This document shows positions 19,487 to 34,353 of a stretch of 64,000 nt of DNA, in pieces (within the stretch, counting starts at the first letter, position 1; each line of letters begins with the position of its first letter). Source of the stretch: an uncultured Candidatus Binatia bacterium (GTDB lineage: Bacteria > Desulfobacterota > Binatia > Bin18); the NCBI GenBank assembly GCA_965200965.1, contig OZ241744.1:800001-864000 (forward strand), given 5' to 3'. Position numbers and translations under genes: made by a program. A model generated the notes under the pieces. The model was not told the origin of the DNA. It searched no databases and worked only from the letters and a program-made list of their open reading frames with translations.

Positions 19487-19987
19487 TCATCCCTCCTGGT
19501 TGTTCTCGCTCAACAGGGTGGTAATCGCCCACTCATAGCCGTCAACCAGCGCCATCCAAGCCGAGGCCAGCAGGTCGCGCGATTTCCGTATAGTGCTCCA
19601 CTGCTGCTGACCGTCGCTGAATTTCATAATCGACACCACCTCGGCGGCGGTTCCGCGTCCGCCCCGATGAGTGTACAGCTCGACGAGTTGTATGTCTCTG
19701 ATACGCGGAAAATGGTGGAGCAAGACCCGGCGTAAAGCCGAATCCAGGGCCTGGACGCCGCCCACGCCCTGGGCGGCCTCAATGTCTTCCTGGCCATGCA
19801 CCTTAACCACCACTACGGCGTCTACAGCCCGGCGTTCTTTCCACTCTTCATCAACTACCCGCCAGCGGACGATCTCGAACGGTGGGCAGTAGCTCGGGTC
19901 TTGCCGCCAGCGGGCCACATCTTGCGACGCCTGGGGGGCCGTGACGGCGTTGAAGAACTCCTCGGACGGTTCCTGCTGGTGTGTCAT
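19487..19987 (-). CDS. Stand-alone LeuA/CimA allosteric (regulatory) domain protein
   Basis: AAQGVGGVQALDSALRR, GTAAEV, DGQQQWST, ASAWMALVDGYEWAI align by eye with the citramalate synthase C-terminal domain. Confidence 0.65.
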   Translation of the reverse strand: MTHQQEPSEEFFNAVTAPQASQDVARWRQDPSYCPPFEIVRWRVVDEEWKERRAVDAVVVVKVHGQEDIEAAQGVGGVQALDSALRRVLLHHFPRIRDIQLVELYTHRGGRGTAAEVVSIMKFSDGQQQWSTIRKSRDLLASAWMALVDGYEWAITTLLSENNQEG

Positions 19988-20033
19988 GGAGGCTTCCTGG
20001 GTGCGGCGTGAGACGCTTGATACACTGAGTGTT

Positions 20034-20273
20034 CTAATCATCGCTCAAGGTGTCCCAGTGAATGTCCCAGAATTGGGGCAGGGGCGGGGCAAACTCGAAA
20101 TGCCCGCCAAAGCACGCAAAGCTCGGTTGATGGGATAAACGCTCACGCAACAGATGGAGATAGGTCTCAAGTTCGTTCTCACTTGGGCCACCTGATGCGC
20201 TGCTAGCGGTTGGCCCCCCTATATCCATGCGCCGGCGGTAGCCACATTTTCGACAACTGATATCGACGTGCAT
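20034..20273 (-). CDS. Small hypothetical protein, possibly metal-binding
   Basis: 79 aa; CRKC plus distal CFGGH; upstream of and co-oriented with the regulatory-domain gene. Confidence 0.6.
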   Translation of the reverse strand: MHVDISCRKCGYRRRMDIGGPTASSASGGPSENELETYLHLLRERLSHQPSFACFGGHFEFAPPLPQFWDIHWDTLSDD

Positions 20274-27416: not shown

Positions 27417-28808
27417 ATGGCGCGTATACGCAACGCTGGCCGTCAGCAATATGTGGCCGCGAGCAGCCCCGAACGAGCCGTGATTGTCGCTGTTGAAGCC
27501 GGCGCAAACAGGTCTCGGGGCGAGCAGTTTCATGGCGGTGATTTTCAGCTTGAAGCGTCCTTGGACGAACTGGCCCGGCTGAGTGAAACTGCCGGCCTGG
27601 AGGTCGCCGGCCAAGTGCGCCAGAGCCGACACAACGGCGTACAACCGGCCTCTTACATGGGGACTGGCAAGCTGGCTGAAGTCCAGGCGCTGAGCGCGAC
27701 AACCGATGCCAATGTGGTGATTTTTGATGACGATTTGTCCCCGGCCCAGCAGCGCAATCTGGAAAACAGCTTGTGCCTCAAGGTCATTGATCGCAGTCAG
27801 TTGATTCTTGATATCTTTGCCCAGCGCGCCCGCAGCCAAGCCGGCAAACTCCAGGTCGAACTCGCCCAGCTCGAGTATCTGCGGCCACGACTCACCCGCC
27901 AGTGGACGCACCTGTCTCGCCTCGGCGGCGGGGTAGGCACCCGGGGGCCGGGAGAAGCCCAACTCGAACACGATCGGCGGCGTATTCGAGAACGTATTGC
28001 CACCGTCCGACGCCGTTTGTGGCAGGTCGAACGGACGCGCGGCCTCCACCGTCAAGAGCGCGCCCGTATCCCCTTCCCGTGCATTGCGCTCGTCGGCTAT
28101 ACCAACGCCGGAAAATCGACCCTGATGAACGCCCTGACCCGCGCTCAGGTGTTGGTCGAAGACAAACTCTTCGCTACCCTTGACCCGACCAGCCGTCGCC
28201 TCGATCTGCCCGGCGGACAGACTGTGCTGTTGACCGATACCGTCGGGTTTATCAACAAACTGCCCCACCAACTGATTGACGCCTTTGCCGGAACTCTCGA
28301 AGAAGTGCGGACGGCCGAAATCCTCCTGCATGTGATTGACGCCAGCCATCCGCGTTGGAGGGAACAACAAGCGGTTGTTCAGCAGGTGTTGCAGGATATC
28401 GGCGTGGCGCATCTCCCGACATTTACCGTCTATAACAAGCTCGACCAACCCCCGGCTGGACCAAGTGAACAGGCGTGGCGGCCGAGGCTCGGAGCGGATC
28501 AAACCGCGGCCAACGGCCCCGCCGGCGGCGAGCCTCACTTTGGTATCTCGGCCCTGAGGGGAGTTGGCATTACCGCTCTGCTCAACGCTCTCGAACGCCA
28601 TCTGGAGCGAGAGCGGGAAGTGCTGCGGCTGGAGTTGCCCCTCGGTGCTGGACAGCTCCTGGATTTTCTGCACAGAAGTGGGCGGGTGATGGAACAAACA
28701 TATACCGAGACAAATGTCCGGGTCACCGCCCGGGTGTCGGCCAAGATAGCCGGACAACTCCGCAAGAGGCTGACCGCAGCTGGTCTGGCCAGACCCATGG
28801 GCGCATGA
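27417..28808 (+). CDS. hflX: GTPase HflX
   Basis: [49 protein letters not shown]. Confidence 0.97.
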
Positions 28809-29395
28809 ACAGCTCATCCTGCTCCCTGGAGCTTCGACATCCTCGGCTCTTGCCCAATCTTATCACCGCCGTGCGTGTCCTGGCCATTCCCGTTCTGCTG
28901 TTTTTTCTAGTCCGGGAGCGCTATGCGGCGGCGTTGAGCACCTTTGTCTTTGCCGGCATGACTGATTGGCTGGACGGGCGGGTCGCGCGCTATATAGGCA
29001 GTGACTCTGAAGAATTTGGCAAGCGGTTTGATGCCCTGGCCGATAAAGCCCTGCTCTGTAGTGTCCTAGTGACGCTCACGATCATGGGTGCTGTGCCGGT
29101 GTGGTTGACTGGCTTGGTTGTGGGCCGGGACGTGGTACTGGTGGGCGGCTTTGTCCTCCTCTTCCTGTGGACAGGTCGGACGATTCGCACCAAGCCAAGC
29201 CAATTTGGCAAGTGGGGGACTTTTTTGCTGCTGGTCACGGTGAGCGCGGCTCTGCTTGAGTTGCTTTCACCGAACTGGTTGCCGGTCTTGCTGGCTCAGA
29301 CGATATGGGTTCTGGCTGGGGGAGCGATTGCCGTCTCTGGTGTCCAATATATGTGGCGGGCAGTTGCCTGGCTGCAGGGCCGGGAGGAAGACTGA
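28805..29395 (+). CDS. CDP-alcohol phosphatidyltransferase
   Basis: PNLIT..R and D..DG..AR...G...D..AD.K signature ([10 protein letters not shown]...[11 protein letters not shown]); ATGA overlap with hflX. Confidence 0.92.
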
Positions 29396-29434
29396 GGCGG
29401 AGCGTCCCGGACGATGGGGAAAGACGGCAGCGGC

Positions 29435-29463
29435 TTGTACGTCAGCCTCATGATTGCTATATG
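29435..29463 (+). promoter_or_regulatory. Putative promoter for the diiron/HMGR-like/kinase operon
   Basis: TTGTAC-17 nt-TATATG with TG at the extended -10 position. Confidence 0.35.
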
Positions 29464-29528
29464 GGGGCTGCCCTGCGATCTATGGTGAGTCATGATTGAC
29501 CGGACTGGATGAGGGATAGGGGGAGAGC

Positions 29529-30278
29529 GTGATTCGGGTCTTTCCGTGTGTTGACAATACCAAACTCCTGGAACTGTTCCGCAAGGGGGTGGAGGGCCAG
29601 TGGTCAGCAGCGGTGATCGACTGGGACCAACCCTTGGGGCTGAGCCAGGCCGAGCAACAGGCTTTCGCCCATGTGCTGACCCCGATCTACCTGGGCGAAC
29701 AGACTGCTATGGTCGGGGCCAGTTCGGTCATCCCGCAATTTTTCGCCATCCACCAGACCGAGGCCCAGCTCTACCTTTCGACCTTCCTGCTTGACGAAGC
29801 GCGTCACTTTGAAACCCTGACCCGGTTCTACAACAAGATAGGCCTGCGTCCCCTGGAGATCCGCGACCTGAAGGTCATGTTTCGTTATCAGGCCCGGCTG
29901 TTCAAGTCGCGCGACAAGATCGAGTGGCTGTGGGGCATCCTGTTGAGCGACATCCTGGCCCGTCATTTTTACGGCCTGCTGATCAAAGCCCACCCGGACT
30001 CACTGTTTGCCCAGTTTGCGCGCCGGATCATTACCGATGAGGCCCGCCATCTCGCCTTTGCCGAGCTATACCTCGGCGAGGAACTCAAGGTCAGGCCCGA
30101 GGTCAAACCGGAATTTCTCACCATGATGGATGAGCTGATCGGGTTGATGCGGGCGATCCACGCCGGCCTCAAAGATCAGGCCGATTTTGTTGGCCTTGAC
30201 GGCACACTGCTGTTTGACACAGTCGTCCATGATGTGGAAAAGAAGGTCCAGCGGATGCAGCTCCGCGAGCCGCTCTGA
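29529..30278 (+). CDS. Ferritin-like diiron carboxylate protein (AurF/R2-like superfamily)
   Basis: QW...IDW, GEQ, two DEARH motifs, LSDIL at the third ligand position. Confidence 0.85.
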   Translation: MIRVFPCVDNTKLLELFRKGVEGQWSAAVIDWDQPLGLSQAEQQAFAHVLTPIYLGEQTAMVGASSVIPQFFAIHQTEAQLYLSTFLLDEARHFETLTRFYNKIGLRPLEIRDLKVMFRYQARLFKSRDKIEWLWGILLSDILARHFYGLLIKAHPDSLFAQFARRIITDEARHLAFAELYLGEELKVRPEVKPEFLTMMDELIGLMRAIHAGLKDQADFVGLDGTLLFDTVVHDVEKKVQRMQLREPL

Positions 30279-30290
30279 GGACAAACCGAT

Positions 30291-31601
30291 GTGAAACTGC
30301 GTCGCTCATCCCGTCGGCCGACCGGTCGCCTGTTGCGCTGGCCGCGGGTCAACCGCCCCGACACGATTCAGTATCGCCAGGACCACCTTCAGACCCTGGC
30401 CCACTGGGACCCGAGTCACCGGCACGTCCTGGACTGGCCCGCCCCGGCCTCGGTTCTGGCCCGTTTTCAAGAGTGCCTGACCGGGCATATGGTGCTGCCC
30501 GTCGGAGTCATCGGTCCGCTGGCCGTCAATCTGGGTCACTACGCACTTGATGACACGGGCCGTGTCCGGGAAACAGGGCGGGGCAGCGAGCAGGTGTTTG
30601 TTCCGCTGGCCCATACCGAAGGCGGCCTGTCTGCCTCGGTCCAACGTGGCGTGAGCGCGGTAGCGCTGGCCGGCGGCATTCACACCCATGTCCTGGCCGA
30701 CAGCATGACCCGAGATTCGTGTTTTATCTTCCGTTCGACCCACGACGCGCTGCGCCTCGCCGCTTGGTTGGCCGACCAACCCGCGGCTATGGCCGCTTGG
30801 CTGCGCCAAGCTCAGCAGGCTCCGCCGGCCAAGGGCCGGCCCACCCTCCCGCCGATCAGCCTGCATGCCGTTTTGCGCGGGCTTGAGACGCATGTGGTCG
30901 GCCCGATGTGCCATGTGCTGTATCGGTTTACCACAGGCGACGCCTGCGGCCCGAATATGATGACACGCAACGCCTACGCCCTGAACCATGGGTTTATACG
31001 AGAGCGCTTTGCGCGCGAGACCGGACTTGAGCCGCTCCATATCTTTGTCGAAACAAACATGGGTGGCGATAAGAAGCCCAGCCACGCCTTTTTTCAATTT
31101 CCCGGCCACGGCAAAGTCGTTGTGGCCGAGGCGACCCTGCCCGAGGCCGTTTTGCGGCGCGTCTTACGCGTGCGGGCCGATGACGTGTCGGCCCTGGAGC
31201 ACGCCGGGCTGCACGGCTCACACGCCAGCGGCATGCAGTCCTTCGCCTTTACCCCGGCCTCAGCCGTTGCGGCGGTCTTTGCCGCTACCGGCCAGGACTT
31301 GGGCATGGTTGGCACGAGCAGTATGGCCCACGATTCAGTCTCACGAACCGAGGACGGCATCCACATCACAATCCGCCTGTCCGGCCTGGAGGTCGGGACT
31401 GTTGGTGGCGGGACGGGTTTGCCCCACGCCCAGGCCTATCTCCAGTTGATGGAGTGCCTCGGTCCGGGCAAAGTCTACCGTTTTGCCCAGCTAATTACCG
31501 CCACCGCCCTGTGCCTGGAGATATCGGCCACCGCCAGCATGGCTTCGGCCGGCAGTCAGAACTTTGTCCAGGCCCACGCTGAGCGAGGCGGAGAAAGATG
31601 A
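30291..31601 (+). CDS. Divergent class I HMG-CoA reductase-like oxidoreductase
   Basis: PVGVIGPL, PLAHTEG, MTR, TGDACGPNM, DKK, ATGQD, VGTVGGGT, EIS, C-terminal His. Confidence 0.88.
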   Translation: MKLRRSSRRPTGRLLRWPRVNRPDTIQYRQDHLQTLAHWDPSHRHVLDWPAPASVLARFQECLTGHMVLPVGVIGPLAVNLGHYALDDTGRVRETGRGSEQVFVPLAHTEGGLSASVQRGVSAVALAGGIHTHVLADSMTRDSCFIFRSTHDALRLAAWLADQPAAMAAWLRQAQQAPPAKGRPTLPPISLHAVLRGLETHVVGPMCHVLYRFTTGDACGPNMMTRNAYALNHGFIRERFARETGLEPLHIFVETNMGGDKKPSHAFFQFPGHGKVVVAEATLPEAVLRRVLRVRADDVSALEHAGLHGSHASGMQSFAFTPASAVAAVFAATGQDLGMVGTSSMAHDSVSRTEDGIHITIRLSGLEVGTVGGGTGLPHAQAYLQLMECLGPGKVYRFAQLITATALCLEISATASMASAGSQNFVQAHAERGGER

Positions 31602-32533
31602 GCCCGGAGCCTGTGGCAGCAGGCGAAGAACACGGGGCGACATCACCTGCTCGGCTCATTGTCAATCCCAGCTCTGGCCGGGGGCGGGGGGCGGCGGTGG
31701 CAGGGCAGGCCAGCCGCTTGCTGACTGACCACGGTGTGGCCCACGATCTGTGTTACAGCGCTTCGCCCGGCGACCCGGTCCGGTTGGCCCATGAGGCGGT
31801 CGCCGATGGAACAGCCGCGGTTGTCGGTATTGGCGGTGACGGGCTAGTGAGTCAGGTCGCCGGCGAGTTGGTTGGGACCGATACGCCACTGGGCGTCATC
31901 CCGGCCGGTCGGGGCAACGATTTTGCCCGGGGAGTGGGCATCCCACTCGATACTGGCGCGGCCTGTGCCACTATTGCCGCTGGCCGGTCGCGGCGGTGTG
32001 ATGTCGGACAGGCCAACGGGCGCTACTTCTTCTCGGTGGCGGTCATGGGTTTGGCCGCCGAGATCAACCGCCGAGCCAACGCTCTGACCAGGCTGCGGGT
32101 GAATGCGGTGTATTCTCTGCTCACCGTTGCCACGATTTTTCGCACCCATCCCCGTCTCTTTACCCTGGAGTACGAAGGCCGCCGCCGCCGCTGCTACAGT
32201 TGGCTGATCGCGGTCGGCAATACCTTGAGCAGCGGCCGGGGCATGGCCCTCGTGCCAACCGCCCGGCCGGACGACGGACAGTTGGACGTGTGTGTGGTCG
32301 GCGGCATGGGCCGGGTTGAGTTGGTGCTGTCCGTGTTTCCCCGTGTGTTCAGCGGTCGGCATATGTACCACACCGGGGTAGAGACCCTGCGCGGGAGTGC
32401 CATAACGATTCACGCCGACCAGCCCGACGACATCTACGCCGACGGAGAACGGATAGGTCCCCTGCCGGTAAGGCTGACGGCCATTCCTCGGGCGCTGCGT
32501 GTGTTGGTGCCGCCCGCCCCTCAGCGCGGATGA
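31598..32533 (+). CDS. Diacylglycerol/sphingosine kinase-family lipid kinase (YegS/BmrU-like)
   Basis: IVNPSSG, GGDG, IPAGRGNDFA, DDGQLD, ADGE; ATGA overlap with upstream gene. Confidence 0.92.
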   Translation: MSPEPVAAGEEHGATSPARLIVNPSSGRGRGAAVAGQASRLLTDHGVAHDLCYSASPGDPVRLAHEAVADGTAAVVGIGGDGLVSQVAGELVGTDTPLGVIPAGRGNDFARGVGIPLDTGAACATIAAGRSRRCDVGQANGRYFFSVAVMGLAAEINRRANALTRLRVNAVYSLLTVATIFRTHPRLFTLEYEGRRRRCYSWLIAVGNTLSSGRGMALVPTARPDDGQLDVCVVGGMGRVELVLSVFPRVFSGRHMYHTGVETLRGSAITIHADQPDDIYADGERIGPLPVRLTAIPRALRVLVPPAPQRG

Positions 32534-32626
32534 TGATGTCTGCTTGCTCAGGAGCGCATTATGGTCCCCCTCGGTCCCCCTTGCAGTCCGGCGGCGATGT
32601 GGTACACGGAGGCGAAGAGGTGAAAC

Positions 32627-32725
32627 ATGTTCTGTCAGGAAGAACAAATCACAGCGCGGGGAACAGCCGTTCAACTGCTCAAAGGCGGCCGTAGAGACCC
32701 CCTCCTGTATCTACACACTGCTCTT
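32627..32725 (+). pseudogene. 5' remnant of an alpha/beta hydrolase gene
   Basis: SD GAGGTG and MFCQEEQITARGTAVQLLKGGRRDPLLYLHTA, after which similarity is lost. Confidence 0.45.
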
Positions 32726-33046
32726 TGCCGCCCCGACTCCAGCTTGGCCAAGACCTTTATTCCAGACAATCCCAGCCCCGCGGCCCCGTCACATGCCCTG
32801 AAAGGAAAGCCCGGGCCGCCAGGGCCCGGGTCGGCTGGAATTCCTCTCTGTGCAATCCAAAGCTCCGGGAACGTCATATCGGCTCAGCCCCGCGGCGCAC
32901 GGCAAAGCCTATCAGGCCGGTATTGCCGGCTCGCAGCTCGTGTCTCTTCCGGGCTATGGTCATGTCCCGCCGTTTGAGAAGCCGCAGGAGACCGCCGCGG
33001 CTGCGCTAGTGCGGTTTTTTGCGCAATGAAGCAGGGAGGGCCATCT

Positions 33047-33688
33047 ATGGACTACCCCGAACCGTTCACGGCCGAGATGTTTGACCGGGTTGACGCGACC
33101 GAAGATGAGCGCTTCTACGAGCTTGCCCGCAAGCTCGTCCATATTGACGAGCCGGCGATTGCCGCGGTGGGAGATTTTATCCAAACGGCCTTTGTGCCAA
33201 ACGGGGTGTTGCTTGACCTGATGAGCAGTTGGCGCTCTCATCTGCCCCGGGGCTTTGTCAAACATCGCCTGATAGGCCTGGGCCTGAATATGGAGGAGAT
33301 GGCCGATAACCCGGACCTGGACGCCTATGTAGTCCACAATCTGAATACCAATCCCGCCCTCCCGTTTGACGACGGAATGTTTCATGGCGTGCTGGTCACG
33401 GTGTCCATCCAATACCTGATTCAACCGCTCGAAGTGTTTGCCGAGGTCTGCCGGGTGCTGAGGCCGGGCGGGCTGTTTGCCGTCTTCTTTTCGAACCGCA
33501 TGTTTCCGACCAAGGCGATCCGGGTCTGGCAGACGCTCCGCGATACCGGGAGGCGCGATCTGGTCGAGAAATATTTTCAGCTGACCGACGGCTTTGAGGC
33601 ACCGCTGTTTTACGATCTGAGTCCCAACCCCGGCCACTCTGACCCGCTGTATGTGGTGTGCGCCCGCAAGAAGCCGGCCGCGGGGTGA
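33047..33688 (+). CDS. Class I SAM-dependent methyltransferase-like protein
   Basis: D..FY...KLVHID, LDLMSSWRSHLP, GLGLN.EEM..N, VSIQYL..P, FSNRMFPTKA. Confidence 0.85.
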   Translation: MDYPEPFTAEMFDRVDATEDERFYELARKLVHIDEPAIAAVGDFIQTAFVPNGVLLDLMSSWRSHLPRGFVKHRLIGLGLNMEEMADNPDLDAYVVHNLNTNPALPFDDGMFHGVLVTVSIQYLIQPLEVFAEVCRVLRPGGLFAVFFSNRMFPTKAIRVWQTLRDTGRRDLVEKYFQLTDGFEAPLFYDLSPNPGHSDPLYVVCARKKPAAG

Positions 33689-34353
33689 GGCACGCGCCCT
33701 GTCAAGCCGTGGGCCGGCCTGAGCGCCCTGCGCGGCCCAACCTCAGCCAGGAACGCAGGCTGTGGCAACACGGTCTGGGCGCAGTTGCCGGAGTTGACGA
33801 GGTCGGTATCGGGCCTTTGGCTGGCCCTGTGGTCGCCGCGGCAGTGATGTTTCCGGCCCAGCAGCTTGCCTCAGACCACGACATCCCGGCCGCTTGGCCC
33901 CAAGGCGTGCGAGACTCAAAGACCCTCACCCATACAGCCCGGCAGCGCCTCGATCTTGCCATTCGCCAGCTCGCCCAGGCTATCGGGATCGGGCTAGTTG
34001 AGGTTGAAGAGATTGACCGGATCAATATCTATCAGGCCGGACTCAAGGCCATGCGTTTGGCGGTGGAGCGGCTGAGCGTTCCACCTCAGCAGGTGTTGGT
34101 TGACGGTCGCCATATCCCTGAGTTGGCCTGTCTCCAGACCGCTTTTCCCAAAGGCGACCGTAACATTTTCAGCATTGCCGCGGCCTCGATTATCGCCAAA
34201 GTCTACCGCGACCGTCTGATGATCGCGCTCGATCGCCGCTATCCGCACTACGGCTTTGCCGGCCACAAGGGCTATGGCACGGCGTCCCACCGGGCGGCTC
34301 TGCGGGAGTTTGGCCCGTGTCCGGCCCATCGCCGCTCATTTCGCCTAGGGTAA
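33685..34353 (+). CDS. rnhB: Ribonuclease HII
   Basis: GVDEVGIGPLAGPV, DSK, KGD, SIAAASIIAKV.RD, KGYGT, HRRSF; start approximate. Confidence 0.95.
   Translation: MRHAPCQAVGRPERPARPNLSQERRLWQHGLGAVAGVDEVGIGPLAGPVVAAAVMFPAQQLASDHDIPAAWPQGVRDSKTLTHTARQRLDLAIRQLAQAIGIGLVEVEEIDRINIYQAGLKAMRLAVERLSVPPQQVLVDGRHIPELACLQTAFPKGDRNIFSIAAASIIAKVYRDRLMIALDRRYPHYGFAGHKGYGTASHRAALREFGPCPAHRRSFRLG

Follow-up and report, generated by a model that had tools for sequence, protein, structure and literature searches.

To our knowledge, the enzyme HMG-CoA reductase (HMGR; HMG, 3-hydroxy-3-methylglutaryl) is known for essentially one reaction. Here we describe a divergent member of this family that is encoded between a ferritin-like di-metal protein, FER1, and a lipid-kinase-like protein, in a 64,000-nucleotide window (the whole stretch of DNA analysed) from an uncultured Candidatus Binatia bacterium (contig OZ241744.1, positions 800,001 to 864,000). 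The reductase shares its fold and catalytic residues with class I HMGR (Methanothermococcus thermolithotrophicus, 6HR7; human, 1DQ8), but differs in the acyl pocket, in being paired with a di-metal protein and in occurring in genomes where HMG-CoA synthase was not detected. FER1 shares the R2-type helical fold of R2lox (4HR0) at 19% identity, but is about 60 residues shorter, has Asp as its third carboxylate and carries Ala at what we take to be the site of the cross-link Val. The kinase resembles the soluble lipid kinases YegS, DgkB and BmrU in profile score and motifs, but stays below equivalog cut-offs and is coupled to the stop codon of the reductase gene. Compared with the cyanobacterial AAR/ADO pair, the adjacent reductase is of the PF00368 HMGR fold and is not AAR, and two lineages have a linked kinase. 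Known DXS bypasses (the methylthioadenosine (MTA)-isoprenoid shunt and the AceE, RibB and YajO suppressors), as far as the accessible part of PMC10663253 covers them, concern hosts with genes of the methylerythritol phosphate (MEP) pathway and without dxs, as in carriers of our module, but have no enzyme family in common with it.

The genes in question are as follows.

29529-30278, + strand: ferritin-like di-metal gene FER1 (open reading frame of 249 aa)
30291-31601, + strand: divergent class I HMG-CoA-reductase-fold oxidoreductase gene (open reading frame of 436 aa)
31598-32533, + strand: YegS/DgkB/BmrU-family kinase gene (open reading frame of 311 aa, overlapping the reductase stop codon)

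All three are co-oriented, with a 12-nt gap between FER1 and the reductase gene and an ATGA overlap between the reductase and kinase genes, and they lie downstream of a CDP-alcohol phosphatidyltransferase gene; the coordinates given in the initial annotation were correct. Contigs from two public runs, which may be the source of the assembly, match positions 29300-33800 without a differing letter. The genome (G000) is a single 3.62-Mb contig, 99.3% complete, and the closest relatives are Candidatus Binatia. The literature searched, largely outside subscription journals, contained no description of a ferritin-like/HMGR pairing; the initial annotation knew of no described operon of this composition. 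The word 'ferritin' is absent from the accessible portion of PMC13488460. The module is conserved and apparently undescribed, and is built on a repurposed HMG-CoA reductase. What is new is the gene module, each protein being of a known fold.

We compared the best 80 among the 210 genome loci in which a relative was found. Gene order and tree placed 44 of these in Binatia, several of them bearing other labels, and the trio was intact in 40 of the 44, with three of the four misses at contig ends. Seven of the loci (L005-L007, L032-L034 and L037) belong to assemblies that bear the names Enterobacteriaceae or Klebsiella; they share the gene order of Binatia and group within the reductase clade of Binatia, and these labels are probably wrong. 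The reductase was found in 18/18 other genomes of the window's family (f1), and gave one distant match in 132 other Binatia. Among 36 Actinomycetota loci, mostly Gaiellales, FER1 was present in one and a different ferritin-like protein, FER2, in 34; the remaining locus was cut at the contig start. FER2 shares 15-18% identity with FER1 and has the ligand set D, E, H, E, D, H. Both types occurred at one same folD-linked site. We then examined a Gaiellales group of 33 genomes defined by shared gene order (28 chosen as dxs-less, G537, and four reached via carrier loci). Every reductase carrier in this group had FER1 or FER2 (17/17, E <1e-79) and no non-carrier did (0/16); in five genomes the reductase and its partner lay far apart and still co-occurred. 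Metagenome loci were sampled as the best 80 of 152 with a distant FER1 alignment, of which 36 were distant and 25 had enough flank. The reductase was present in 23 of these 25 informative contigs (15 downstream, 7 upstream, 1 convergent), and five distant FER1 contigs also held a kinase. Going by source names, homologues of the reductase occur in Armatimonadota and Chloroflexota; those of FER1 occur in Bacillota and Tectomicrobia. One member of the FER1 cluster (WP_241712051.1) comes from a named species, Sulfoacidibacillus ferrooxidans.

The fixed unit is the ferritin-like/reductase pair, and adjacency of the kinase is lineage-limited. The initial annotation had taken the trio as the unit; the pair is indeed co-conserved and the trio holds in Binatia, but the kinase stands beside the pair in two lineages only. 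Two outcomes that would have spoken against the initial annotation, absence of co-conservation and a mevalonate route in the genome, were looked for and not seen. Related genomes are not independent observations, but since gene order changes, the partner is exchanged and co-occurrence persists even when the genes are unlinked, passive linkage can hardly explain the association.

The reductase has the HMGR fold (PF00368, 257 bits) and falls below the TIGR00533 equivalog cut-off (182 bits against 441.8). In an alignment of 137 rows, the catalytic positions E110, R141, D260, K261, K262, D336 and H429 and the CoA-side positions S116 and R119 were kept in 132-137 rows. We take the catalytic set of class I HMGR to be Glu559, Lys691, Asp767 and His866, the roles of the residues being assigned on that assumption; E110 was found in 136/137, K261 in 137/137, D336 in 136/137 and H429 in 132/137 rows, the remainder being gaps. 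The HMG-binding side is different. The S684 site is Glu in 137/137 rows, the K735 site is Ala in 108, Thr in 11, Val in 7 and Ile in 6, the H752 site is Thr in 135/137, and the N755 site is Ser in 132 and Thr in 4. The motif DAMGMNM is replaced by DACGPNM, and His108, His273, His308 and Cys144 are additional conserved residues. By this residue pattern, the clade keeps its catalytic residues, and its acyl pocket is rebuilt. Chemistry between a thioester and an alcohol is favoured because the catalytic set is kept, and HMG is disfavoured as substrate because the pocket residues are changed. A separate orphan HMGR clade was also found in lipid-type clusters; in one locus (L236:4799-12729) HMGR, diacylglycerol-kinase-family, UbiA-like, PEP-utilising and phosphatidylserine decarboxylase genes stand together, and in another (L082:5000-12335) an HMGR-phosphotransferase fusion stands with DUF3419, GNAT and MMPL genes.

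An ordinary, diverged HMG-CoA reductase that uses HMG-CoA from leucine breakdown, with its neighbours present by chance, would agree with the fold and the catalytic residues, and with the label HMG-CoA reductase in public sources. The altered HMG-binding residues and the strict co-occurrence with a ferritin-like partner speak against it, as does the genomic setting. HMG-CoA synthase (PF01154) was not found in G000 and occurred in 0/18 f1 and 0/17 Gaiellales-type carriers, while 6/8 controls were positive. G000 contains one GHMP domain, in a gene at the usual ispE position, which we infer from this position to be ispE. We regard this explanation as very improbable. Because HMG-CoA synthase was not found in 36 carriers, the trio is not a mevalonate operon, and the pair lies outside the mevalonate pathway. 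The lack of HMG-CoA synthase that had been noted for the window extends to the genome, which encodes dxr, ispF, ispG and ispH.

G000 also encodes thiG and pdxJ. ThiG and PdxJ use 1-deoxyxylulose 5-phosphate (DXP). Searches of G000 for dxs with the profiles PF13292 and TIGR00204 found none, and tblastn with three DXS query sequences gave partial matches (26-31%) at best; a search for a RuBisCO-like protein in G000 was negative. The genome accordingly shows the Dxs-less MEP profile (MEP genes, no dxs, fewer than two mevalonate genes), with ispD not searched. As far as the accessible part of PMC10663253 goes, 181 species lack only Dxs, of which 172 are unexplained, and the Dxs-less rows seen in its supplement show no mevalonate gene.

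In one explanation, the module bypasses DXS: its product would be a branched polyol phosphate of five carbons (MEP, DXP or a near precursor), which would enter the MEP pathway in bacteria that have no DXP synthase. An HMG-CoA reductase rebuilt to accept a neutral branched polyol-acyl-CoA would work with a di-metal hydroxylase and a kinase; a branched hydroxy-acyl-CoA could, for instance, be hydroxylated, then reduced and finally phosphorylated. The gene content of G000 and the unexplained species above are in its favour. So is the distribution of dxs, which occurred in 0/36 tested carriers (0/19 f1, 0/13 in a Thermoleophilia-level sample, 0/4 further) as against 133/148 non-carriers of the Thermoleophilia-level sample, while Gaiellales-type genomes kept dxr (19/20 loci) and ispG (33/33). 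In addition, FER1 adjoins ispH in five contigs; in one contig it lies near ispG, and in one next to DUF2600. However, the ispH and ispG neighbours belong to ordinary housekeeping operons, the correlation was obtained in two lineages, and the retained Dxr, ThiG and PdxJ depend on DXP as such, a compound that thioester reduction would not obviously yield. Furthermore, dxs was above cut-off in 31/151 Binatia and missing in 120, and 15 genomes of the Gaiellales group lack dxs and module alike; dxr and ispG persist in many dxs-less non-carriers, and thiG and pdxJ are present too in the non-carrier G257. We consider a DXS bypass unlikely. The module sits inside dxs-less lineages and is not needed for the dxs-less state. 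Because dxs-less non-carriers keep dxr and ispG, and G257 keeps thiG and pdxJ, gene content indicates that another DXP source must exist, whatever the module does.

Several observations on these pathways were made alongside. Several dxs-less families of Binatia keep dxr and ispG; in the three Binatia examined for thiG and pdxJ, both genes are retained and a RuBisCO-like protein is lacking. In the Gaiellales group, 28 genomes are without dxs, and the N-terminal domain of the Gaiellales-type DXR is shortened (~350 aa; L180-L199), so that PF02670 misses it at 1e-15 and TIGR00243 accepts it. The Binatia families f4, f97 and f94 (L168-L179) are without dxr and ispG and have another HMGR type; HMG-CoA synthase is present as well in f4 and f97. 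Mevalonate and MEP strategies are mixed within the class Binatia.

FER1 has an R2-type helical fold (R2lox/R2/ADO) and its family is ferritin-like, with AurF and R2lox profile matches below cut-off (NF006200, R2lox: 39.7 against 194). The predicted metal ligands are E57, E90, H93, D141, E171 and H174; all six positions are filled, one of them by Asp141, and Ala60 occupies what we take, from the R2lox numbering, to be the site of the cross-link Val. In one FER1 subgroup (P0220-P0240; L118, L120, L121, L132), a tail at the C-terminus carries three conserved cysteines, which by sequence could possibly form an extra metal site; in several loci of this subgroup the gene order is reductase, then FER. 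Elsewhere, FER1 adjoins a fatty-acid desaturase gene (L156:134-1027) and a DUF2600 gene (L162:180-1292), DUF2600 presumably being a YtpB-like terpene cyclase.

The ADO-like fold bears on an analogy raised in the initial annotation, in which the module would act like AAR/ADO: the reductase would halt at the aldehyde and the di-metal protein would deformylate it to an alkane or alkene and formate. The fold of FER1 fits this proposal. Nevertheless, the ADO profile PF11266 gave no match to FER1, and FER1 homologues scored 14.7-18.9 bits against a cut-off of 28; folD is not in the Binatia loci; and an alkane would leave without a role a kinase that is tightly linked in two lineages and that argues for an alcohol as end product. 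We hold this analogy to be quite unlikely.

The kinase scored above the cut-off of TIGR00147 (YegS/BmrU; 147.9 against 118.65) and below every equivalog cut-off, matched DgkB 2QV7 with E 8e-23, and has intact GGDG and GxGNDFAR motifs. It is the only member of its family found in G000. Within Binatia it occurred in 8/8 f1 genomes as against 3/27 others, those at ~30% identity. The two lineages in which it stands next to the pair are Binatia and one other. An alcohol product is favoured because the kinase is fixed behind the reductase in both.

Taken together, the reading we prefer, tentatively and at a little under an even chance, is that the pair and the kinase oxidise an acyl(-CoA) other than HMG, reduce it to a primary alcohol and phosphorylate it. 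The di-metal site of FER1 would carry out an O2-dependent hydroxylation or desaturation, the HMGR-fold enzyme would use NAD(P)H to reduce the acyl-CoA thioester by four electrons to the primary alcohol, and the kinase would add phosphate from ATP, presumably in that order. The substrate may be lipid or branched and isoprenoid-like, and the product, which would serve the synthesis of lipids or isoprenoids, is likely a phosphorylated alcohol not described before. In Gaiellales-type carriers an unlinked kinase of the same family would act. Several observations weigh against this reading. The kinase is adjacent in 0/36 Actinomycetota loci, similar kinases occur in all 33 genomes of the Gaiellales group whether or not they carry the reductase, and the two pair-adjacent kinase groups were not shown to form one clade. 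In L050, the fourth of the misses in Binatia, no FER gene adjoins the reductase and kinase genes, and two loci (L088 and L089) have FER1 without a reductase within 4-7 kb. Orphan bacterial HMGRs without a ferritin-like neighbour have lost the K735 and S684 residues as well, and in its pocket loops the model of the reductase is weak (predicted local distance difference test, pLDDT, <50 at 255-272 and 304-319). Finally, the flanking genes are housekeeping and differ by lineage, and therefore name no substrate.

The module might also run in the opposite sense, for catabolism or salvage: the di-metal protein would hydroxylate the terminal methyl of an alkyl or prenyl chain, the HMGR-fold enzyme would oxidise the alcohol to a CoA thioester and the kinase would salvage the alcohol. 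HMGR of Pseudomonas mevalonii oxidises mevalonate to the CoA thioester. The residue pattern of our reductase does not fix a direction, and other orphan HMGRs occur among genes that we take to be acyl-CoA ligase-like and dehydrogenase-like. That the HMGR reaction is reversible is general knowledge (see also the accessible part of 10.1101/2020.06.03.132290). On the other hand, the module is single-copy, lies among core genes and occurs in every f1 genome searched, and no gene for a transporter, a regulator or beta-oxidation is conserved beside it, so that we find such a role improbable. The probability left over from the readings above goes to unlisted uses, for instance a radical role for FER1.

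Three further features surround the module.

28805-29395, + strand: CDP-alcohol phosphatidyltransferase, PgsA/ClsA-like (PF01066)
29435-29463, + strand: promoter-like site (TTG, 17-nt spacer, TGn-extended -10), conserved in aligned upstream regions
32627-32996, + strand: broken alpha/beta-hydrolase remnant (four tblastn fragments, 60-81% identity)

A strict sigma-70 consensus scan found no promoter upstream of the trio and missed the possible promoter proposed earlier at 29435-29463. Nonetheless, TGCTA is conserved there in 12/13 and the upstream TTG in 11/13 aligned Binatia upstream regions, and because of this conservation the site is likely the module's own promoter. It stands between the trio and the CDP-alcohol transferase gene, whose position had been given correctly; this gene adjoins the trio in just 20/44 Binatia loci and is absent in 20 with >1.5 kb of flank, and hence is context, outside the module. 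The alpha/beta-hydrolase remnant lies between the kinase gene and a methyltransferase gene. The hydrolase gene was matched in 27/44 Binatia loci and its open reading frame is deleted in L001; it is not essential to the module. At 19487-20041 the window also encodes a LeuA allosteric (dimerisation) domain that stands by itself and is 184 aa long.

In summary, the vertical retention of the clade, its rebuilt pocket and its strict pairing with a di-metal protein point to a new reaction and a core metabolite in abundant uncultured bacteria. Members of the clade are all annotated as ordinary HMGR, a label that would wrongly imply a mevalonate pathway. Should the DXS bypass prove true, the non-mevalonate pathway of Binatia, Gaiellales and further uncultured lineages would be supplied by an enzyme of the mevalonate pathway. 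The module would then be a natural, DXS-independent entry into isoprenoid synthesis, and would bear on how Dxs-less bacteria begin the MEP pathway.
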